This document shows, one piece after another, positions 23,172 through 34,201 of a stretch of 64,000 bases of DNA. A program made the position numbers and the translations under genes. Within the stretch, counting starts at the first letter, position 1; each line of letters starts with the position of its first letter. The stretch comes from Yuukianura sp. NJ FZ-2021. Lineage: Eukaryota. The notes under the pieces are model-generated. The model had not been told where the DNA came from, searched no databases, and saw only the letters and a list, made by a program, of their open reading frames with translations. The stretch is from NCBI GenBank assembly GCA_046563655.1, contig CM102285.1, forward strand, positions 5,828,001 to 5,892,000, in the 5' to 3' direction.

Positions 23172-23990
23172 GTTGATTTAACTCAAAGTTATTTTACAGT
23201 TTAATTAGTATTAGGATTGATTGAATTTTTAGGAATTTAATACAAGTTTTTATTAAAAACTGTTTTTTAAACATACTTTGAGAACTTAAATTGTGTATCT
23301 AAGTCTCCATTCGAAAAAGTATACGATATTCACCATGTCAGGAAAGTAAAAACATACCAAAGACTTCCGTCGAGAAGCGAGGAACTTACAAAATAATCTG
23401 ATAAATCAATAAATATTTATAGAAAAGTGTTAAAAAAAATAGTTATTTATTATCGGAGTCGGAGTAGTCACAAGACTTTGGATCAGAACGGCGCTTTTGT
23501 ATTTTAGCGAAGCCCTTGCCACCGGGATTTTGACGGCGTTTTATAAATTGATTATTTTTACCCCGGAACTGGAGGAAATGACGTTTCTTTGCCCCCTTTC
23601 CAATTATGTGATGGGTTGTGTGTGGGCATCTACAACGTTAGACTTTGTATCGTTCTCGAATCGGTTCTGAGCAACTGGCGAATTTACCCCATATCACTTC
23701 ATCCTGTGGAATGGGAATCCGACTACGCACTTTGACCACACCTTTGCCAGAGGTGTTGCATTGGATAAACCGTACGTTCCGGACTTGAGCCTATAATCAT
23801 TATAGGCGTGGTTGATAAATCTTAAGAGATTCCCGCGCTGCCTGGCATCGATGTAGTTGTTACCTTCTACCGGAAGTAAGTAGTTGGTCAAGACTAGAGA
23901 TAACAGAAAATTGTCAAAAATTGATTTCTGTCGAGCAATTGTTCGGAGTGATTAGAATGTTTCATTTCAAGGAATGAAAAGGGCATTAAC

Positions 23991-24393
23991 TGTGAGAAAA
24001 AGGTCACTCCCATGACCGTACAGCCCAACTGTCGGAGTAACCTAAAACTTAATAGTTCTAAGAATTCTTTCTGTTTCTGTTTTTGACATTTATTATCATG
24101 TTTTATTGCTTCCTTTTCTCCCAGGACTTAAAAATTGTAAAGGTCAGTTTTCAGTTTAAGCTAAAGTTTCATATTCTTTAGTTCCCAGAAAAAGGGGCCC
24201 CACCCCCTCTGTTTTCTTAGTCCAGCAGCTGGACACAGATGTGCATTTTCTTTAAAATCAGAAGACTAACTTAGGAATCGAAGCCAGTAGTCAGTTAACT
24301 TTCAGCAGCAGTTCAGCTTCATTTTTTAATTCTTATTCTAATAAAGCAATTGGATTTTATTCATCTGACTTTCTAAGTGTGAATACGCTCACA
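23991..24393 (+). repeat. Copia 5' LTR
   Basis: TG...CA, direct repeat of 30822-31224, contains AATAAA. Confidence 0.97.
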
Positions 24394-24411
24394 TGGTAGC
24401 AGAGGGAGGTT
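24394..24411 (+). promoter_or_regulatory. Primer binding site complementary to the 3' end of initiator tRNA-Met
   Basis: TGGTAGCAGAG immediately after the 5' LTR. Confidence 0.9.
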
Positions 24412-24494
24412 TAGCTAAATCCAGTTAAGCAGAATAAGTTTTTTTTGAGTGAAAGCAGTTAAGCAGTTAATTGACTCTTTTGTTTCCATCAAAA

Positions 24495-27400
24495 ATGGCA
24501 TCAACGAAAACATCGGTGAAAGTGGTCAAGTTGAAAGACGATAACTATGACCACTGGAGGCTTCAAGTCTCCCTTGTGTTAAAAGCAGCCAAGTTGTGGG
24601 ACGTGGTGGTTGGCAACGCCGTACGACCCGCAGAAGCAGCCGAGGATTGGGATCAAAAGGACGTAGAAGCACAGTCCATTCTGGTCTCCACCCTCGATCA
24701 AAAGCAAACAAATCACATCGGAAAAGCCAAGACTGCAAAAGAAATTTTTGACACTCTTGAGAAATACCATTCCGATCACAGTGCCTTAAACAAACAGCAT
24801 ACTCTCGCGGAATTTTTAAACTTCAAAGTGAAGCCAAATCAACAACTAACTGACATCTTTTCAGCTGTAGAGAAGCTTCAAAGCAACCTGAATAAGATGG
24901 GAGTTACCATCGACGACGCAACTTGCATTACAAAAATAGTAAGTTCGTTACCCGATAATCCTCATAAGGCATTTAAGAAAGCTTGGGACTCAGTCCCAGA
25001 TGACTCACAAACAATGGAGATACTTCATTCCAGACTAAAGAAGGAAGATCTGGAGCTTAAGACAAAGTCTGAGGCTTCAACTTCAGCCACTCCAAAAGAA
25101 AATGTGAAAGCTTTCCATTCTCAGGGAAGTGGTGAAAGTCATAAGCCCAACAATGGTGGACATAAAGGTAAAAACATTGCTGAACTTAAAAAACGCACAA
25201 ATTGTGCCAAGTGTGGTTTACGGGGTCACTGGGCAAAAGAATGCAAAACACCCACTGGAAAGCCAGTTCAGCCAAAAGTGAAAGCCACAAACAATGTGAA
25301 TGCCTTTATGACCGTTGAAAGTGAAAGTGAGTGTAGTGATATGTGGATCTGTGACTCCGGTGCGTCACAACATATCTGTGGACAGAAGGATTGGTTAAGT
25401 GACTTTTCAGTTTTTGAGGAGCCAGCAGAAGTTACACTGACAGACAAGAGAAAAGTCCAAGCAATAGGACAAGGTGAGGTTCCAATTCTTGCTTATGCAC
25501 AAAATGGTTGGGTGAACTGTATTATACAAAACGTTTGGTACATTCCGGGAGCCATGAATCTCTTTTCTGAGTCTGTGATGACGAAGAAGGGATTCACAAT
25601 TGTTAAAAATAACAAAACAGTGAAATTCACTCACCCGGAGGGAAGAATTTGTCCGAGTGCAACTTTTAAAAGAAACATGTACGTCATGGACTTCAAACGA
25701 GCATCTGTTGCTATGACCTCGTTGAGTGACAGTAAAATTCACGAAAAATGTGGACACATCAATTCAGCTTACATCAACCAAACTGTCGAAAAGGGAGCAG
25801 CAATTGGTTTGGAGAAAGTGAAAGGCTCTTTCACTCATTGCCGACAGTGTCTGCTTGGAAAACAGAACCAAAAGCCGTACCCTCGAGTGAAAGTGAAAAG
25901 AGAGACAAAAGTCGGTGAAATGGTACATGCGGATTTGGCGGGAAAAATCAACCAAAAATCACTTGGTGGCTCGTCATACTTTCTTCTGCTGAAGGATGAT
26001 GCCTCAGGTTATCGAACTGTGCATTTTCTGAAGAAAAAGTCAGAAGCAGCAGATCATATTTTCGAATATGTGAGGTTCATGGAAAACCAGGTTGGTCGTA
26101 AATTAAAAACATTCAAAAGTGATTTAGGAGGAGAATTTATCTCGGAGAAAGTTAGCCAATTTTTTGCAGCTGAAGGAATTGTCCATGAGACCTCTGCCGC
26201 TCATTGTCCTCAAAGCAATGGGAAAATTGAGCGGGAAATTAAAACTGTTAAGAATATGGCCCGAACACTTCTCCAGAAGCATAATACTCCAGTATTTCTT
26301 TGGGCAGAGGCCGTGGCGACATCCGTTTACTTGTTAAACCGAATTTTAAATAAGCAGAGTCCGGAAGTTACTGCCTATGAACAAGTTTTTCAGCGAAAGC
26401 CGAATTTGGAACATTTGCAAATTTTTGGCTCACCAGCAGTTGCTCATGTGGCTTCGGTAAACCGAAGGGTTTGGGACGCAAAGAGTAAAGAATGCATTTT
26501 TGTTGGTTATGCTGCTGATCATGGGCAGTACAGACTTTATGATCCTTCCACTCGAACAATTTTTGTGGGGAGAAACGTAACATTTTTGGACAGTGAAAGT
26601 GATTCTTCTGAAGTGACAGTACGTTTGAATCATCAGCCACATGAAGTGAAAGATGAGAGTGAAAGTGAAGGGGAAGATTGGGATGAACCCGCAGGTAGTG
26701 ATCGTGGAGAAGACGATGAGGAGAAAGTTGAGCATGCAGAGGAAAGTGAAAGTGACGAGGAAGGGAGCGACGAAGAGAAAGTTGAAAATGGTGACAAGAA
26801 GGGAGTGGAGGAGACTCCTTGTAGTTCCACCCCCTCCCCACAAGTCAAAAGGACAACAGAAGGAGACCCTTCCCAGGGTCCCTCCAACAACAAAATTAAC
26901 ATCATAATAAAAACTCCCTCCGGAGATTTTGTTACTGAAGTCCCCACAGATCGCACTTCCACAATAAACCTGAGGGACAGAAGTAAACTGAAAAAACCTT
27001 CCCGTTACGGTCTGTTTGCCAATGGTTGGCAAAATTTAGCCCCATTGACCCCAGTGACCTCTGACACGACAACTTCCCATAATACCTCGCCCCAAAGTGA
27101 AAGCATGATGAACAAACAGGAAACCCTCATGGCTTTCTTCAATTTAGAATTCAGTTCAAATCACACTTTGACTGAGTTCTATGAGGAGATCAGACAGTTA
27201 GCCGAATCTCTCAACGAAATGGGAGTGAAAGTCGACGATGCCCAAACAGTGGTTCGCATTGTCGCAGCACTTCAAGATGACTCTCACTCTAGCTTTAAAG
27301 AAGCTTGGTCCAGAGTTCCAGCAGAAGAGCAGACCATGGCTATGCTCCATGATATGCTTAGAGAAGAAGAGACGAAAGTGAAAGCAGCTCAGGATGTGGG

Positions 27401-30400
27401 GGAAAATGGCCAAAATGCAATTGGGTTCCTCTCAAGTGCAAGTTCAAGTGATGGTATCCTTGAACCTAAACATTACAAGCAAGCTTTGGCGTCTCCTGAA
27501 AGAGAATTATGGGAGAAAGCCATGCAGGAGGAACTTGATAGCCATGCAGAAAACGGAACTTGGATTTTAGTTCCTCGCCCCGACAAAGTGAAAGTTCTGG
27601 ACAATAGGTGGGTATTTAAAATAAAACGGAACCCCGATAATTCGGTTCAACGCTTCAAAGCCCGTCTTGTCGTCCGTGGCTTTCTCCAGGAAGAGGGCAT
27701 TGACTTCCAGGAGACTTTCTCTCCTACATGCCGATATGAGGCGATACGTATTTTACTAGCCATCGCAGCATCTCGTGGTTTCCACATAGTTCAAGCAGAT
27801 GTTAAAACTGCTTTTCTCTATTCAGAGTTAAGTGAGCAGATTTACATGGAGCAGCCTCCTGGCTACATAGAAGGAACTGATGACGTATGTTTACTAAAAA
27901 AATCACTTTATGGGCTTAGACAAAGCCCAAGATATTGGAATCAAACTTTTTCAAACTTTTTGCAACGTTTCGAGTTTACCCCCACAGTGAGTGACAATTG
28001 TGTGTTCATCAGAAAAAGATCAGAATTTTCTGAATACTTAGCTGTGACGGTAGACGATATCCTTGTCGTCTCTCCTTCACATTCGTCAGCAAAAGAAGTT
28101 ATAGAACGGATTGGGGAGGAGTTTCAGATCACTTCAAGTGACCCGTCAACTTACGTGGGAATTCAACTAGAACGTAATATGGATGGTTCTATTCGAATCC
28201 ACCAACAAGCATATGCGCAGAGCATTTTGGAGCGATTCAATATGGCCGACTCCAAACCAGCAAACGTACCAATGCAACCAAATACCCAACTTTCTCCAGG
28301 GGGTGAAAGTCCTAAAGAGTTACCATACCGCCAGCTTATTGGAGCCTTAATTTTCCTTGCCAGGCTCACTCGACCCGACATTGCTTTCACCGTCTCAAAA
28401 CTTTCTACTTATGTGAACTCTTATGCAAAAGACCATTGGGAAGCTGCAAAGTCCCTCCTTCGCTACATTCAAGGAACAAAAACTTTTGGTCTAGTATATT
28501 CCAAAGGTGATACTTTGACCCTGAACGGCTACAGTGACAGTGACTTTGCGGGAGACACACGAGACCGAAAATCTACGAGTGGTTTTGCTTTCTTTCTTGG
28601 TGAAAGCCTAATCAGTTGGTGTTCACAGAAGCAACCGATTATAGCGTGTTCCAGCACTGAAGCCGAATATATTTCTCTTCACGATGCTGCACGAGAAACA
28701 GTCTGGATTCGTAGACTACTAAATGAACTCGGCTTGAATCAAAAGGTTCCCACAATTATCCACGTGGACAATCAAAGTGCAATTCGTCTAGCCAATAACC
28801 CAGAATTCCATAAAAGAAGCAAACACATCGATGTAAAATTTCATTTTACACGAGACCTCGTAATGACGAAAACAATTGAGGTCAAATATGTACCCTCTGA
28901 ATTCCAAAAAGCGGATATTTTGACAAAATCCATGATGAAAATCAGACATGCCAAACTGACTCAATTGCTCGGGCTGGTGGACATGCGCAGAACTCCCGTG
29001 ATTTTACAAAATTCAAAAGATGAAGAAGCAGAAGAAAAAGTTTTGCAGTTGGACAACGCAAGAGGAGTTGACCAACCCTCAACTAAGGACCCTCCAAAGG
29101 ACCCTTCAATCATAAACGCAAAAGACAAAGACAAAGGGGAAGGAGCACCAACAGAAGTGAGAGAAAAAGAAAAGGGCCAAAAATCCAATTGGAGTAATTT
29201 CGCTCACTTTTGCCTATTCTTGTCTTTGATCCTTGTCTCCACCCCTCCGTCCTTTGCAGTGACAACTAAAAATTCGCAGCCGATTCTCTGGAGACGGAGC
29301 CTAACCCCTATTACCACTGGACACAATCAAGTTCATCTGCTTATCAAGTTCGTATCTCCTTGTGACCTCCTGACGGAAGAATTAGTTCATCGTGACGTCC
29401 TTCCGTCACTCAAAGAAAAATGCGAAAAAGCCTACAGGGAATTATTTCTTGAAGAGATTGAACGGATGTGTCCACGGCATTCCAGGACGGAAGTCACACT
29501 CCAACACAATCCTAATGATGTACTAAACAGAGAGAAAAAGTTCATCATTACAGCAGCATTAATCCTCATTGCAACCCTTGTTGTTTCTGTCGCTGTGGGA
29601 GCAACGGCCTTGGGTGTGTCTATAAGCAACTCCAACAGCATCTCCGATATTCAAAGCGAATTAGCTAAACAAGAGCAGAGACTGGACGAGGAGGCTAATC
29701 GTCTGACTAGAGCAGAAATCGCAATAAATGAATTGAAGCAAAGTCTCAAATTATTGGCAATGGAAGTGAAGGTAATTGAAAGAGACTACGGCGAATTCAA
29801 AGCTACATTTGGCGATACAGTTTTTGGAATTTCCTACATTACAAATCGACTTTTGAACGGAAATCAAATCATCAAGGACGCTCGTCGCCTTTGGCTTGAA
29901 AAGAAAGTTCATCCTACGCTGTTTGACTTCTTCAATTACACACTGCCATGCGGAGACTCCTGTCCATTAAAATTCGCCTCGGCCCAGAACTGCTGGTTGT
30001 CAAGTGACAGATCAAAATTATTTATGGACTTCACCGTACCGGAAATCAATCCGGACCTACACTTAGTGAATGCAGATCCGTTCTTTCTCCTACACCAAAA
30101 GGAAAATCAAACTTGTAAAATAATTTACACCGGTCCTCAGAACGCCGTTATTTCTGATGTCCAGGACTGCATTTACGCAGTGAACGTCCATCGAGATGAT
30201 TTGATTCTAATGTCAAATGGAAAATGTGACACGATTTCTCACAATTCAGAAGCCAACAAATACTTTGCATTGGACAAATGCTTTCCACGCTCGGCTGGAG
30301 ATGCCTGGAATTTTGTTCAAATCAAACCAGCCTACGGACACTACCACATTTATTGTGCAGGGAACGAGATTTCAATTGGAGGAAGAAAGGAGCAGTGCCC

Positions 30401-30809
30401 CAACGAAACGTTTCTATTGCCGATAGCCACTCCGTTCAAAATCAATGACCATTATTTCAAGGGCGGAGTAGTAAGGCTAAATCATCAGGAATCATTGGAT
30501 CCCATCCTTTCCGTGCGGACGAATTGGCACCTCCGGCCGAATATGAACTTGGACGAAATCATTTCAAAAATCGATGGAATTTCGAAGCTGGAGCAAAAAC
30601 CGAATGCGGAAGGCAGTGGGGGCGGAGCATCTTCCCACCGCGGCTGGTACATCACTATACTTAGCGTTTTGGCAGTGGTGGGAGCAATTGTCGTCCTGAT
30701 GTTAGTTCATCAGTGCCGTACTCGGGTCATCCGGGTCATCTCATCTCCTGCTGAAGCAGCTCCTGGCAGACTCCCCGCCCCACCAGAAGAAATCGAACTT
30801 CAAGTTTAG
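24495..30809 (+). CDS. Copia Gag-PR-IN-(extra Gag-like domain)-RT-RH-Env-like polyprotein
   Basis: First ATG at 24495. CCHC CAKCGLRGHWAKEC, protease WICDSGAS, HHCC, integrase VHADL/KSDLGGEF/NGKIER, RT RFKARLVVRGF/KSLYGLRQSPRYW/TVDD, RNase H YSDSD/SSTEAEY/DNQSA/ADILTK. IN-before-RT order identifies it as copia. About 540 aa of glycoprotein-like tail follows. Confidence 0.95.
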   Translation: MASTKTSVKVVKLKDDNYDHWRLQVSLVLKAAKLWDVVVGNAVRPAEAAEDWDQKDVEAQSILVSTLDQKQTNHIGKAKTAKEIFDTLEKYHSDHSALNKQHTLAEFLNFKVKPNQQLTDIFSAVEKLQSNLNKMGVTIDDATCITKIVSSLPDNPHKAFKKAWDSVPDDSQTMEILHSRLKKEDLELKTKSEASTSATPKENVKAFHSQGSGESHKPNNGGHKGKNIAELKKRTNCAKCGLRGHWAKECKTPTGKPVQPKVKATNNVNAFMTVESESECSDMWICDSGASQHICGQKDWLSDFSVFEEPAEVTLTDKRKVQAIGQGEVPILAYAQNGWVNCIIQNVWYIPGAMNLFSESVMTKKGFTIVKNNKTVKFTHPEGRICPSATFKRNMYVMDFKRASVAMTSLSDSKIHEKCGHINSAYINQTVEKGAAIGLEKVKGSFTHCRQCLLGKQNQKPYPRVKVKRETKVGEMVHADLAGKINQKSLGGSSYFLLLKDDASGYRTVHFLKKKSEAADHIFEYVRFMENQVGRKLKTFKSDLGGEFISEKVSQFFAAEGIVHETSAAHCPQSNGKIEREIKTVKNMARTLLQKHNTPVFLWAEAVATSVYLLNRILNKQSPEVTAYEQVFQRKPNLEHLQIFGSPAVAHVASVNRRVWDAKSKECIFVGYAADHGQYRLYDPSTRTIFVGRNVTFLDSESDSSEVTVRLNHQPHEVKDESESEGEDWDEPAGSDRGEDDEEKVEHAEESESDEEGSDEEKVENGDKKGVEETPCSSTPSPQVKRTTEGDPSQGPSNNKINIIIKTPSGDFVTEVPTDRTSTINLRDRSKLKKPSRYGLFANGWQNLAPLTPVTSDTTTSHNTSPQSESMMNKQETLMAFFNLEFSSNHTLTEFYEEIRQLAESLNEMGVKVDDAQTVVRIVAALQDDSHSSFKEAWSRVPAEEQTMAMLHDMLREEETKVKAAQDVGENGQNAIGFLSSASSSDGILEPKHYKQALASPERELWEKAMQEELDSHAENGTWILVPRPDKVKVLDNRWVFKIKRNPDNSVQRFKARLVVRGFLQEEGIDFQETFSPTCRYEAIRILLAIAASRGFHIVQADVKTAFLYSELSEQIYMEQPPGYIEGTDDVCLLKKSLYGLRQSPRYWNQTFSNFLQRFEFTPTVSDNCVFIRKRSEFSEYLAVTVDDILVVSPSHSSAKEVIERIGEEFQITSSDPSTYVGIQLERNMDGSIRIHQQAYAQSILERFNMADSKPANVPMQPNTQLSPGGESPKELPYRQLIGALIFLARLTRPDIAFTVSKLSTYVNSYAKDHWEAAKSLLRYIQGTKTFGLVYSKGDTLTLNGYSDSDFAGDTRDRKSTSGFAFFLGESLISWCSQKQPIIACSSTEAEYISLHDAARETVWIRRLLNELGLNQKVPTIIHVDNQSAIRLANNPEFHKRSKHIDVKFHFTRDLVMTKTIEVKYVPSEFQKADILTKSMMKIRHAKLTQLLGLVDMRRTPVILQNSKDEEAEEKVLQLDNARGVDQPSTKDPPKDPSIINAKDKDKGEGAPTEVREKEKGQKSNWSNFAHFCLFLSLILVSTPPSFAVTTKNSQPILWRRSLTPITTGHNQVHLLIKFVSPCDLLTEELVHRDVLPSLKEKCEKAYRELFLEEIERMCPRHSRTEVTLQHNPNDVLNREKKFIITAALILIATLVVSVAVGATALGVSISNSNSISDIQSELAKQEQRLDEEANRLTRAEIAINELKQSLKLLAMEVKVIERDYGEFKATFGDTVFGISYITNRLLNGNQIIKDARRLWLEKKVHPTLFDFFNYTLPCGDSCPLKFASAQNCWLSSDRSKLFMDFTVPEINPDLHLVNADPFFLLHQKENQTCKIIYTGPQNAVISDVQDCIYAVNVHRDDLILMSNGKCDTISHNSEANKYFALDKCFPRSAGDAWNFVQIKPAYGHYHIYCAGNEISIGGRKEQCPNETFLLPIATPFKINDHYFKGGVVRLNHQESLDPILSVRTNWHLRPNMNLDEIISKIDGISKLEQKPNAEGSGGGASSHRGWYITILSVLAVVGAIVVLMLVHQCRTRVIRVISSPAEAAPGRLPAPPEEIELQV
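29187..30809 (+). other. Env-like class-I fusion glycoprotein region of the copia polyprotein
   Basis: Internal signal-like hydrophobic stretch, basic site REKK followed by a hydrophobic fusion-peptide-like segment (starts 29541), heptad repeat, Cys-rich ectodomain with NYT/NQT/NET sequons, C-terminal TM (about 30645-30710), short tail. Confidence 0.8.
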
Positions 30810-30821
30810 GTTAAGGGGGTG

Positions 30822-31224
30822 TGTGAGAAAAAGGTCACTCCCATGACCGTACAGCCCAACTGTCGGAGTAACCTAAAACTTAATAGTTCTAAGAATTCTT
30901 TCTGTTTCTGTTTTTGACATTTATTGTCATGTTTTATTGCTTCCTTTTCTCCCAGGACTTAAAAATTGTAAAGGTCAGTTTTCAGTTTAAGCTAAAGTTT
31001 CATATTCTTTAGTTCCCAGAAAAAGGGGCCCCACCCCCTCTGTTTTCTTAGTCCAGCAGCTGGACACAGATGTGCATTTTCTTTAAAATCAGAAGACTAA
31101 CTTAGGAATCGAAGCCAGTAGTCAGTTAACTTTCAGCAGCAGTTCAGCTTCATTTTTTAATTCTTATTCTAATAAAGCAATTGGATTTTATTCATCTGAC
31201 TTTCTAAGTGTGAATACGCTCACA
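30822..31224 (+). repeat. Copia 3' LTR
   Basis: Direct repeat of 23991-24393. Confidence 0.97.
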
Positions 31225-31625
31225 TTAACCTTCCACTTTGTCATCTGTTGCTGATTTCTCATCTTGCTCCTCCATTTTCTTTTTGTCCTCCTTCGTAATG
31301 ACGTCTCCAGCGTATAACATTAAATCTGTATTCGCCGGAATATCTCTCGCTGCTCCTAGCCCGAGACCTCCGATGGGCTCGTCGTAGTAAACATAAAACC
31401 AAATTCCATCCTCTTGGCAAACTTCGACATCATTGTACACCACTGCTTCCGTCCGGACAAAGTTATTGACATGTAGTTGGTCCAGTAGTTCTAAAGCCTT
31501 GGAATCCGTCCGAAGGTAATGAAATCCGGAACAAGTTCGGCAAAACGGCCACTCGATTTTCTACGATTAAAATATCGTTTTATATCAATTTTTGGGTGTA
31601 GATTCCAAATCTGAAATTCGTTTTT

Positions 31626-31904
31626 GGCGGTCGCACCTCCTTCCTGGTAAGATTAATTAATTAAGATTTTAATTAATAGTGTATGCATTTCACATGCAGA
31701 ATGAGTGTGTAACCAATGGAGATTCGAATTTATTGTTGTTATATGCTAACCAAACCTAACGCGCGCCTGCGGCGCGGAGATATAACAAACAACAATCCTT
31801 GGTTTCCATTGGTTACACCACAAATTCTCATTCTGTTTATCAAATTCACACTGTTAATTAGACTCTTAATTAATTAATCTTACCAAGAAGGAGGTGTGAC
31901 CGCC
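31626..31904. mobile_element. MITE-like unit nested in the palindrome arm (mirror copy about 33722-34000)
   Basis: TIR GGCGGTCRCACCTCCTTCYTGGTAAGATTAATTAATTAAGA at both ends; no TSD seen. Confidence 0.7.
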
Positions 31905-32500: not shown

Positions 32501-33126
32501 CAGGTCATTAGCGCGAAAACAAAAGGCGCGAATTCACTAGGCGCGAATGCATTAAGCGCGAATGCAATAAGGGCGTATGTAAATAAGCGCGAAGGTAATT
32601 AAGCGCGAATGTAAATAAGCGCGAATTCAATTGGCGCGCCCCTGCATTAGCGCGAAGGTAAATAAGCGCGAATTTCCAATAAACAAAGTCATAAATTTAA
32701 ATTCGTTAGTCTGCCATTTTTAACAACGGACTAGATGCTTGGAAACCTAACCAAACCTAACCTAAGCGTCATAAAACTATAGTTGTATGGTTTAGTGTAA
32801 CCTAACCTATGATAATTAAGTAAAATAAAACCAAAAAATATATTAAAAAAAAGACAAACCTACTAACCCTGTTCGAACTTTAAATTTTCTCAAATACAAG
32901 GAATTTGAAACCCAAATTAAAAAACCCAACTTCAGTTTCCATTTTAAATACGAATTCGCGCTTATTTACCCTCGCGCTAATGTAGCGGTGCGCCAATTGG
33001 ATTCGCGCTTATTTACATTCGCGCTTAATTACCTTCGCGCTTATTTACATACGCCCTTATTGCATTCGCGCTTAATGCATTCGCGCCTAGTAAATTCGCA
33101 CCTTTTGTTTTCGCGCTAATGACCTG
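32501..33126. mobile_element. MITE-like core of the palindrome with GCGCGAA subterminal repeats
   Basis: CAGGTCATTAGCGCGAAAAC...GCGCTAATGACCTG; about 10 (A)GCGCGAA-like units per side; CCTAA motifs in the spacer. Confidence 0.7.
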
Positions 33127-34201
33127 CTACGAATAGAGTTTTTAGCGGTACAACAACTTAAAAGCTTTACGACTACAAGGGTAGACTTTCATTAAAAAAA
33201 GTATTATGCTTTACTCTGTAAGTACTAAAAAAGATACAGTTAGAAAAAACTTTTCTTTTTCCTTTTTTTAAATAATTTAAATCATAAAATCATAAAGAAA
33301 AAAATTTAAATCATTTATCCAGTTAACAGCAACAATAGATGAATATTGAGATATATAATTATAAAATGCTCCGTCTGGTCCACTATCTCTCTGTCTTCTC
33401 CCGGATCAACGTTGTTGTTCGGTGGTCGCCCGACAGGCTTCCAGATGAAGGTTGATTCCGCAGAATCTGAAGAGTACTACAAAGGCTGCCTAGGCGACAT
33501 CAGTGTCAACGGAAAACAAATTGATTTCAGTGCCTCGGAAGGTCCCGGATCCTCCGTTACCCGGAATTGTCAATCCAAAAAAGAAGAAGTTCCTCCCCAA
33601 AACTCTTCTTATGCAATCGGGCGAGACGACGATCTGGACGAAAAATCCACCAAGGGTCCTGCACCAGCAGAACACCAAGAAACTACTACGCAAATGCCAG
33701 AAACAACTACGTATATTCCTCGGCGGTCACACCTCCTTCTTGGTAAGATTAATTAATTAAGAGTCTAATTAACAGTGTGAATTTGATAAACAGAATGAGA
33801 ATTTGTGGTGTAACCAATGGAAACCAAGGATTGTTGTTTGTTATATCTCCGCGCCGCAGGCGCGCGTTAGGTTTGGTTAGCATATAACAACAATAAATTC
33901 AAATCTCCATTGGTTACACACTCATTCTGCATGTGAAATGCATACACTATTAATTAAAATCTTAATTAATTAATCTTACCAGGAAGGAGGTGCGACCGCC
34001 AAAAACGAATTTCAGATTTGGAATCTACACCCAAAAATTGATATAAAACGATATTTTAATCGTAGAAAATCGAGTGGCCGTTTTGCCGAATATAAGCCAA
34101 ACGGTTTCTCAGTTCTTCTACAGTTTTGAGACAGGCCGGTTTAAGTCGCATCAATTGTCAACTCCCTCCAGAAGACCTATGCTCAACCCTTGAGCATTGC
34201 C

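Follow-up and report, generated by a model that had tools for sequence, protein, structure and literature searches.

The DNA analysed here is a 64,000-nt window from Yuukianura sp. NJ FZ-2021 (GCA_046563655.1, contig CM102285.1, 5,828,001-5,892,000 of the forward strand). In it lies a complete, intact, young retrotransposon of the Ty1/copia group (Pseudoviridae), recently inserted, that also encodes an F-type Env. Positions given below are those of the window, and all features lie on its + strand. The element begins with a 403-bp LTR (23991..24393) that has the ends TGTGAG...CTCACA, and finishes with a second LTR of the same length (30822..31224). By blastn the two match over 404 bases with 99.75% identity and one mismatch, the 404th base being a chance identity past the LTR end. 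The 5 bases TTAAC, evident by direct reading, occur immediately outside each LTR (23986..23990 and 31225..31229) and represent the target-site duplication. Adjoining the 5' LTR is a TGG... stretch (24394..24405), which we take, from the usual anatomy of LTR elements, to be a putative primer-binding site; the polypurine run AAGGGGG (30813..30819) immediately 5' of the 3' LTR is, by its position, the putative PPT. Searches with tblastn and blastn found no further copy of the element in the 64-kb window.

Between the LTRs is a single ORF, Gag-PR-IN-[CA-CTD]-RT-RH-Env, assigned from the ORF list and Pfam (24495..30809; 2104 codons from the first Met, plus the stop), and situated in a stop-free frame of 2112 codons (24471-30809). 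Residues are numbered from the first Met, at 24495. The canonical Gag capsid region, NTD and CTD, comes first (residues 26-192; 24570..25070); it matches Retrotran_gag_2 (PF14223) with 88.7 bits over profile positions 2-171, and the Drosophila Copia VLP protein 8vvw, residues 12-189, with E 9e-07. A CCHC zinc knuckle follows (residues 237-251; 25203..25247), recognizable as CxxCxxxGHxxxxC in the translation and by weak, sub-cut-off matches to PF00098 and PF13917. Next come the protease region, a Pol beta-barrel domain (residues 284-367; 25344..25595; PF22936, 70.6 bits), and the integrase (residues 395-702; 25677..26600), which comprises a pre-integrase zinc region (PF13976), a catalytic core (rve, PF00665, residues 472-570, 37.1 bits) and an SH3-like domain (SH3_retrovirus, PF25597, residues 632-702, 83.2 bits). 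An acidic low-complexity linker (26601..27011), defined from the translation and from alignment A1, ends in LRDRSKLKKPSRYG, a motif common to relatives. Beyond it are a lineage-specific insert of 135 residues (840-974; 27012..27416), the reverse transcriptase (RVT_2, PF07727, residues 1020-1261; 27552..28277; 204.5 bits) and, at the C-terminus, 515 Env-like residues (29262..30806). The order PR-IN-RT-RH, with integrase ahead of RT, assigns the element to Ty1/copia, as do the RVT_2 and Retrotran_gag_2 scores, and the direct TG...CA LTRs with their 5-bp target duplication.

The insert contains a second capsid-like segment, which we call gag2 (residues 870-963; 27102..27383), to distinguish it from its counterpart in the canonical Gag, the gag1 CA-CTD (residues 96-189; 24780..25061). 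The initial annotation had described 27111..27374 as collinear with Gag at 24789-25049, strongly diverged and yet in frame, and closer inspection bears it out. Both translations are exact, and BLASTP aligns the two segments gap-free, with 37/87 residues identical, 57/87 similar, and E 2e-30 for this single comparison. With longer flanks, the ungapped match extends to 94 residues (870-963 versus 96-189), 39 of them identical. Pfam recognizes both segments: gag2 by itself scores 32.2 bits with PF14223 (E 9.1e-08; profile 74-169 of 172), above the curated cut-off of 27 bits. Gag2 is in frame within the element ORF, between the integrase SH3-like domain and RVT_2, with neither an NTD upstream nor an NC or zinc-knuckle part downstream; a Ser/Thr/Pro-rich linker and a short polar linker, both flexible, flank it. 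In short, Pol contains a diverged copy, in frame, of the C-terminal region of the capsid. A sequence search of the PDB with gag2 alone as query returned no E below 0.77.

Structure prediction gives the same answer. AF2 models gag2 as a bundle of five helices, with pLDDT 95-97 over model residues 21-110, and 53-73 and 60-65 in the flanking linkers. The model superposes on the Drosophila Copia CA-CTD (8vvw_A) with Z 12.6 and rmsd 1.7 Å over 94 aligned residues, model residues 20-114 lying on chain residues 93-186. Its top structural matches are retroelement CA-CTDs or C-lobes throughout—8vvw, MOAP1, Ty1' (9rxw, Z 9.9), PNMA2, PEG10 and Arc among them—and, besides 8vvw, 14 more capsid CTD or C-lobe entries score Z 8.6-10.5. 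Foldseek E-values are weak (0.019-0.034; none at or below 0.001). Judged from the model, gag2 is predicted to be a complete, foldable CA-CTD of the Arc C-lobe fold, present from the first helix to the last.

The 135-residue insert falls exactly where, over a short junction, the conserved end of integrase gives way to the conserved start of RT. In alignment A1 it occupies columns ~1101-1242, where P0004, P0005, P0022 and P0116 are all gap and P0007 has five residues and otherwise gap. The motifs LFAN, just 5' of the insert, and NAIGFL, just 3', both resemble a junction motif that is single in relatives, and in the same alignment the IN/RT linker varies greatly in length and sequence from one relative to another. 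A second Gag-like stretch occurs in none of 15 long relatives, comprising the five just named and ten Gag-Pol(-Env) proteins, each with one Gag-like stretch at the N-terminus. Nor is the Gag-like stretch directly preceded by integrase, or directly followed by RT, in any of 131 Gag-like hits from a database of 1.84 billion representatives: in 58, Gag is followed by ZnK/PR/IN, and 73 are Gag only. A word-index search with residues 840-1030 against proteins of 30-1156 aa produced 921 candidates, none with E at or below 0.001. When residues 620-1100 were compared with proteins of 1157-3682 aa, the insert was left uncovered in the best 120 of 2517 copia proteins, the local alignments spanning 18-31% of the query. 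A metagenome scan with residues 700-1100 found two distant loci (L001, L002) in which IN passes straight into RT with no Gag-like piece, and a scan of viral contigs found no relative. In the literature, among the matches listed by a search with most subscription journals outside its range, a Gag domain within copia Pol is undescribed. The initial annotation knew of no such domain in the standard copia architecture, and these comparisons support that view: among the relatives examined, a CA-CTD between IN and RT is absent. A different extra folded domain has been fixed in the coding sequence of another Ty1/copia family, in those arthropod Copia elements that captured a methyl-CpG-binding domain (PMC6673714); that domain is host-derived and DNA-binding, whereas gag2 has the capsid fold of the element itself.

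Contigs from three sequencing runs (X1, X2 and X3) of one sample, which may be the window's own source, cover the insert in part or in full. The X1 contig (26868-28021) spans both edges of the insert with zero differences, and the X2 and X3 contigs cross the 3' edge. The X3 contig, over 27046-27703, shows 14 differences and is gap-free; it is ~2% diverged, and represents a second copy holding gag2. The segment thus recurs, free of indels, in another copy of the element, though possibly one whose sample is also that of the window. The sample further contains diverged contigs from the gag region of related subfamilies.

How old is the duplication? The codon-position identities of gag1 and gag2 are 51/87, 59/87 and 28/87, with ~0.26 expected by chance at third positions, and identical codons specify 14 of 34 identical residues compared with 12.9 expected from codon usage. 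Estimates of dN are 0.51-0.55, and of dS 2.5 or undefined. Of 15 columns with conservation of 80% or more across 102 canonical Gags, gag2 retains 11, with all the large hydrophobic ones among them (F, L, I, L, F, W, V, L, L); it has lost four, by K>R, P>Q, S>R and R>M. Only 7 of the 102 canonical Gags keep as few of these columns as gag2, or fewer. Silent sites that are saturated, together with a hydrophobic core that is kept, show that the split is old, as the initial annotation proposed, and that the fold was under selection, either at its present position or earlier, elsewhere. This signal of selection could stem from an earlier period, in which the segment belonged to the ordinary gag of another element. 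Because the four lost residues are polar or Pro, the surface contacts of canonical Gags may no longer be made.

The source of the copy is a separate matter. In the ML tree gag2 stands beside (gag1, P0123) with support 95/80, on a branch of length 0.83 compared with 0.19+0.21 for gag1; other placements survive AU tests (p 0.453 and 0.431). P0123 is the sole close relative of gag1 (81% over 88 columns) and is a 283-aa fragment from a 3353-base contig. In the helix 2-3 stretch gag2 has QLAESLNEMGV...TVVRIV and gag1 KLQSNLNKMGV...CITKIV, and P0123, too, is unlike gag2. Part of the original proposal, that gag2 duplicates the element's own Gag, consequently needs qualification: that it copies the C-terminal region of a capsid stands, but that the element's own gag was the donor does not follow from the tree. 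We envisage that the insert arose in the ancestry of this family, after it had split from relatives that lack it, when CTD-coding sequence was copied into the IN/RT junction from its own gag or from that of a closely related element, template switching during reverse transcription being the likely route. Thereafter, gag2 would have changed at roughly twice the rate of the resident CTD but retained its hydrophobic core.

What such a domain might do in Pol can be approached by analogy. The best structural match of gag2, the Drosophila Copia CA-CTD (8vvw, 8s41), belongs to the same Pfam family and corresponds to it along the whole CTD. There, however, the CTD follows an NTD in Gag and builds the shell, whereas gag2 has neither NTD nor NC and has lost 4 of the 15 canonical residues. 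One study places the Copia CTD at residues 91-186, with CTDs at the capsomer periphery touching those of their neighbours (PMC11835246). In Ty1, according to another, the CA-CTD is an obligate dimer that forms through a hydrophobic surface of helices 1 and 3, a surface likewise conserved in Ty3 and dArc (PMC8458377). The reading that we favour, tentatively and at somewhat less than even confidence, is that gag2 is a putative Gag-binding module on Pol that pairs with other CA-CTDs. If gag2 still pairs as CA-CTDs do, then the Pol product that bears it—the IN C-terminus, the RT N-terminus or a freed peptide—would gain a handle on the Gag shell. With this handle, Pol products would be retained at the wall of the capsid, or the assembly and maturation of the lattice would be modulated. 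Certain considerations temper the proposal. Since all 15 relatives manage without the domain, it is dispensable for the basic cycle; and since the element has a single ORF, Pol is already joined to Gag before cleavage, and a tether is less needed. Prediction of a complex between Gag residues 10-200 and gag2, performed without alignments and without controls, scored 0.00 in two runs, a value that speaks neither for nor against pairing.

It is nearly as likely that gag2 is a tolerated passenger: a CTD piece placed by a template-switch accident in the variable, disordered IN/RT linker, the part of Pol that is most permissive, and without a function of its own. The great variability of the IN/RT linker, the 15 relatives that do not need the domain, the roughly twofold faster evolution of gag2 than gag1, and the loss of 4 of 15 strongly conserved residues would all suit a passenger. 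So would a small family, which this may be, one further copy with gag2 having been seen. On this account gag2 persists because a stop or frameshift within it would abolish RT, RNase H and Env, all of which lie downstream, and because a domain that folds compactly is less harmful than one that does not; and if the segment came from another element by capture, the conservation it shows requires no selection at the present site. If both copies have shared one element since they split, on the other hand, gag2 has been exposed for as long as it took the silent sites to saturate, and free drift would have erased the match, and instead 39/94 identical residues, an above-cut-off Pfam score and the whole hydrophobic core persist. 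In-frame loss of a passenger would be harmless, moreover, and yet the domain is complete from first helix to last.

Some capsid fragments act as inhibitors. Like gag2, Ty1 p22/p18 (7nlg, 7nlh, 7nli) are CA-CTDs of the Ty1/copia group, able to stand alone and additional to full-length Gag. The initial annotation drew this analogy, and at the level of the fold it is apt: the gag2 model matches 7nli with Z 9.5 and 7nlh with Z 9.4 (rmsd 2.3-2.4 Å over 90-92 residues). Yeast Drt2 (9rxy; Z 9.2) is another diverged, extra CA-CTD that exists apart from a working gag; it is, according to the reports, a restriction factor domesticated from the CA-CTD of Ty1' (PMC10951436, PMC12530519). Drt2 is a host gene outside elements, whereas gag2 rides in an apparently active element as part of Pol. 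By these parallels gag2 could be a built-in inhibitor that is freed by the protease, or made from an internal start, and caps Gag lattices, thereby limiting the copy number of its own family or poisoning the capsids of competing copia families. The flexible linkers on either side would allow this, and the junction-like motifs LFAN and NAIGFL would fit two cleavage sites. Competitors exist, to judge from the gag contigs of related subfamilies in the same sample, and p22 itself acts through CTD-Gag interaction, according to the published accounts (PMC8458377, PMC4599808). We consider such an inhibitor unlikely, nevertheless. P22 comes from an internal gag transcript and has the same sequence as Gag's C-terminal half, as these sources describe it (PMC4599808, PMC8458377); gag2, though it too consists of a Gag CA-CTD, is instead a distinct segment, fused in frame at the IN/RT junction, and is only 41-43% identical to gag1 rather than the same in sequence. 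As RT follows downstream in the same frame, gag2 is made at the level of RT, with no separate dosing short of an internal transcript.

Two Met codons lie immediately before gag2, and might be thought to mark an internal start; the position aligns with a Leu that canonical Gags conserve (SAL-NKQ versus SMM-NKQ), and conservative substitution explains it equally well. Splicing from the border between the NTD and CTD of gag1 to an acceptor before gag2 was also considered by eye and dropped: the border lacks a GT donor, and the pyrimidine-rich AG before gag2 is unconvincing.

A related and similarly doubtful idea, built on the same analogies, is that gag2 serves as a weapon or governor inside Pol, a diverged capsid-binding domain that would reach each particle or cell at Pol stoichiometry, docking IN/RT on the inner capsid wall or capping the lattices of related copia families that compete with it. 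As an equally improbable part of this joint reading, the element's own Gag would have drifted away from gag2. Were it true, an animal element would carry a naturally occurring, cis-encoded equivalent of Ty1 p22 and Drt2, of independent origin.

Merged gene models such as P0036 and P0081 also have two Retrotran_gag_2 stretches in one predicted protein, but in models of this type the second Gag is full and is followed by its own PR-IN, which identifies nested or tandem elements; in P0036, a full Gag (profile 2-171) with its own ZnK-PR-IN comes after a truncated RT. That gag2 stems likewise from mis-assembly, or from a chance read-through of two broken elements, nested or recombined, is very improbable, given that only the CTD half is present and RT rather than ZnK-PR-IN follows, that the frame is open over 2112 codons, that LTRs one base apart and a TTAAC duplication on both sides make gag2 part of one mobile unit rather than a junction of two fragments, and that contigs from the one sample cross the edges of the insert, that of X1 doing so at both edges without a difference and those of X2 and X3 at the 3' edge.

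Retroelements and hosts alike, as Ty1 p22/p18 and Drt2 illustrate, put CA-CTDs to renewed use in the control of capsid assembly. Fv1-like factors are also among the capsid-domain pieces reused for capsid control. Here, the mobile element itself carries an old, diverged and, by prediction, folded second CTD in its enzyme polyprotein, at a position that is empty in the relatives examined. If gag2 binds Gag, it would constitute a new link from enzyme to shell, or a means of controlling the element itself or its rivals, and the gag1 CTD and gag2 would make a small, easily expressed pair for studying how CTD-CTD specificity evolves. If gag2 is a passenger instead, it still marks the IN/RT junction as a site where copia accepts whole domains.

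The Env-like region at the other end of the polyprotein is predicted to have the fold of a class I fusion protein of the paramyxovirus F type. Its AF2 model is of middling quality (pLDDT 70.8); Foldseek aligns it with hPIV3 F (1ztm, E 7e-11) and with 8tve and 3rki, and among the matches listed, of 232 with E at or below 0.001, F proteins occur throughout. The region matches no Pfam family and is common to all 14 long relatives aligned. A basic motif followed by a hydrophobic stretch, and a further hydrophobic stretch at the C-terminus, can be read in the translation and in alignment A1. The F fold, to which these motifs and the Foldseek matches assign the region, is characterized by a small N-terminal part, a basic cleavage motif with a hydrophobic peptide after it, a long helix, a beta-rich head and a C-terminal membrane anchor.

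The element is bounded by two LTRs (23991–24393 and 30822–31224), direct repeats that begin with TG, end with CA and differ from each other by one base; the pair is flanked on both sides by the five bases TTAAC. Directly 3' of the 5' LTR is a stretch beginning TGG, and directly 5' of the 3' LTR a run of purines; from their positions these would be the primer-binding site and polypurine tract. Between the LTRs lies a single stop-free frame of 2112 codons, and this intact frame and the near-identical LTRs point to recent insertion of an element that is probably still mobile. Counted from the first methionine (window position 24495), Pfam places copia Gag at residues 26–192 of the polyprotein, a CCHC knuckle at 237–251, the Pol beta-barrel/protease region at 284–367, integrase (IN) at 395–702, and reverse transcriptase (RT; RVT_2) at 1020–1261. 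Between IN and RT come an acidic linker and then an internal Gag-like piece, which we call gag2; after RT come an RNase H region and a membrane-protein part of 515 residues that ends the frame. The order, with integrase ahead of RT, is that of Ty1/copia elements.

The initial annotation described gag2 as a diverged, collinear copy of the element's own Gag (gag1), and its translations of both segments proved exact. The alignment is gapless, with 37 of 87 residues identical (BLASTP E 2e-30), and with its flanks it grows to 39 of 94: residues 870–963 (27102–27383) against 96–189 (24780–25061). Alone, gag2 scores 32.2 bits against PF14223, the Pfam copia Gag family, over positions 74–169 of a 172-position profile. 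The curated cut-off is 27, so chance resemblance can be set aside on sequence grounds. An AlphaFold2 model of residues 853–992, built from an alignment of 64 rows, predicts five helices with pLDDT 95–97 over model residues 21–110, and lower values in the flanks on both sides. Foldseek's best matches to this model were all capsid C-terminal domains (CA-CTDs), at weak E-values of 0.019–0.034, none at or below 0.001. A second structural aligner ranked first the Drosophila Copia capsid (8vvw_A; Z 12.6, rmsd 1.7 Å, 94 residues), followed by MOAP1, Ty1', PNMA2, PEG10, Arc, Ty1 p22/p18 (7nli 9.5, 7nlh 9.4) and Drt2 (9.2), Z-scores of a kind that helical bundles easily attain. Model residues 20–114 superpose on 8vvw_A chain residues 93–186, and the 8vvw report gives the Copia CTD as residues 91–186 (PMC11835246). 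Because this superposition spans the CTD, and agrees with both the Pfam match and Gag's own sequence alignment to Copia, gag2 is, as modeled, a complete CA-CTD set between flexible linkers. It has no NTD upstream and no zinc knuckle downstream.

The copy was also claimed to be old and retained, and its age is borne out. The CTD-coding stretches of gag1 and gag2 are identical at 138 of 261 nucleotides—51, 59 and 28 of 87 at codon positions 1, 2 and 3, where chance alone would give about 0.26 at the third. Identical residues, Met and Trp excluded, use the same codon in 14 of 34 cases, against 12.9 expected were silent sites fully randomised under the ORF's own codon usage. With silent sites saturated, and with dN at 0.51–0.55 against a dS of 2.5 (LWL85) or undefined (NG86), the sequences indicate an old split, and purifying selection along the path between the two copies. 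Fifteen columns are shared by 80% or more of 102 canonical Gags. All 15 are kept in gag1 and 11 in gag2; 7 of the 102 keep no more than gag2 does (canonical median 0.93). Every large hydrophobic conserved residue is retained, and the four replacements are K>R, P>Q, S>R and R>M. Conservation is higher at columns where gag1 and gag2 match (Mann–Whitney p 0.0004), a comparison confounded by gag1's own history.

In a tree of 54 CTD segments and 88 columns, gag2 falls beside gag1 and the database protein P0123 (support 95/80), with a tip of 0.83 against 0.19 for gag1 plus a stem of 0.21. The simplest account is a duplication in the ancestry of the element itself, after which gag2 evolved about twice as fast. 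Both copies would then be of the same age, the saturated silent sites would mean that gag2 itself has been selected, and the branch shares would put a rough upper bound of about 0.3 on its omega. Alternatively, gag2 could have been captured from a related element at some unspecified date, and the argument for selection at its present position would then fall. By AU tests, trees in which gag2 is placed elsewhere are not rejected (p 0.453, 0.431). The length of the gag2 branch, and its unusual loss of polar residues that Gags conserve, speak against capture in very recent times. The anatomy and age of the copy stand; its source may be the element's own gag or that of a related element.

The initial annotation judged the domain foreign to standard copia architecture, and the relatives we examined lack a second Gag stretch of this kind. 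The nearest long database proteins, 37–44% identical and of the same full layout, Env part included, have about ten residues where the element carries its 135-residue insert (residues 840–974, 27012–27416): across it P0004, P0005 and P0022 are entirely gap, P0007 has five residues, and P0116, which is further removed (29%), is without it too. With either segment as query, phmmer matched only the N-terminal Gag of the long relatives. HMMER, run in full against 1.84 billion representatives, returned 131 hits, among them ten more Gag-Pol(-Env) proteins of 1741–2005 residues, each with one matched stretch, near the N-terminus. By domain order, 58 hits have Gag followed by zinc knuckle, protease or IN, 73 have Gag only, and none has an IN–Gag or Gag–RT adjacency; the Gag-only rows are mostly too short to judge: of the 71 that gave a local hit, only 7 continue for at least 150 residues beyond the match. 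In four of the 131 the match lies at another place in the protein: an allergen-repeat protein and a PPR protein are spurious hits, the third is a LINE-plus-Gag gene model, and the fourth a Gag extended at its N-terminus. At two distant metagenome loci IN passes directly into RT. Some gene models, P0036 and P0081 among them, do hold a pair of complete Gag domains, as the product of merged nested elements. By these comparisons gag2 is not a feature of the wider lineage.

We know of no copia element with a capsid domain placed between its IN and RT, and found none described in the literature, our coverage of which was incomplete. Extra domains as such are familiar: Ty3/gypsy integrases carry chromodomains. 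Arthropod Copia is reported to carry an MBD (PMC6673714), and fixation of extra domains in LTR elements is called rare in one report (PMC9289625). A CA-CTD between IN and RT is seen so far in one family in one genome.

What gag2 might do can be approached by analogy. The CA-CTD of Ty1 forms obligate dimers by way of a hydrophobic face on helices 1 and 3, common to Ty3 and dArc, and p22/p18 restrict Ty1 by engaging Gag (PMC8458377); Copia CTDs lie at the capsomer periphery in mutual contact (PMC11835246). We tentatively favor a Gag-binding handle on a Pol product, which would keep RT or IN close to the capsid shell or modulate its assembly. Nearly as likely, gag2 may be a passenger tolerated in the most permissive part of Pol. 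A p22-like inhibitor of the element itself or of rival families, whether released by proteolysis or translated from an internal start, seems unlikely. That the arrangement is an artefact is very improbable. The insert occupies the ten-residue stretch between two motifs conserved in relatives, with junction-like residues on both sides, which would fit release as a free peptide.

There is no second copy of the element within the 64-kb window. We aligned to it contigs from three runs (X1–X3) of one sample, possibly the window's own source. An X1 contig (26868–28021) spans both insert edges without a difference, and an X2 contig (27046–28108) is likewise identical; an X3 contig (27046–27703) has 14 differences and no gaps. 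Within this single sample, therefore, gag2 is kept in frame in one or more additional copies or alleles diverged by about 2%. The remaining X3 contigs on the element show ~0.5–1.7% difference. Some gag-region contigs are more diverged (e.g. 29 differences and 2 gaps in 375 bases), contig ends are loose at the LTR edges, and a joint in X1 and X2 (25699>31172) skips 5472 bases; the family thus has more insertions, and an internally deleted derivative retaining LTR, gag and the start of the protease, which would account for the greater summed depth across gag.

The C-terminal 515 residues of the ORF (29262–30806, + strand) are predicted to adopt a paramyxovirus/pneumovirus F-type class I fusion protein fold: the AlphaFold2 model (pLDDT 70.8) has 232 PDB matches at E ≤ 0.001, including 1ztm at 7e-11. 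A basic motif precedes a hydrophobic peptide, and a membrane anchor lies at the C-terminus. All 14 long relatives aligned share this part (25–37% identity, 13 invariant Cys), so that, on the modeled fold, a whole Ty1/copia lineage carries an F-type env in frame with pol; a brief literature search found no description of one. The signal-peptide-like stretch of Env (29040–29330, + strand) has no start codon near it, the nearest in-frame Met being about 70 residues upstream. Splicing of the mRNA or cleavage of the polyprotein is the probable source of Env.

The element sits in a minus-strand reading frame (31228–31560 on one side, 23697–23951 on the other) that ends exactly at the LTR edge. It has a weak, below-cut-off match to the SET domain (PF00856, E 0.042), and the ORF on the element's other side has an RFINH-like motif; an exon coding for part of a SET-domain protein may be interrupted by the insertion. 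Further on, a unit of ~280 bases occurs twice, 2096 bases apart (31626–31904 and 33722–34000; families D4 and D5). Its copies are 91% identical and its two 57-base ends form an inverted repeat, so that it resembles a MITE. Two blocks (32553–32674 and 32954–33061; families D2 and D3) consist of short tandem units built on TAAGCGCGAAT; they are mutual reverse complements and lie about 280 bases apart.
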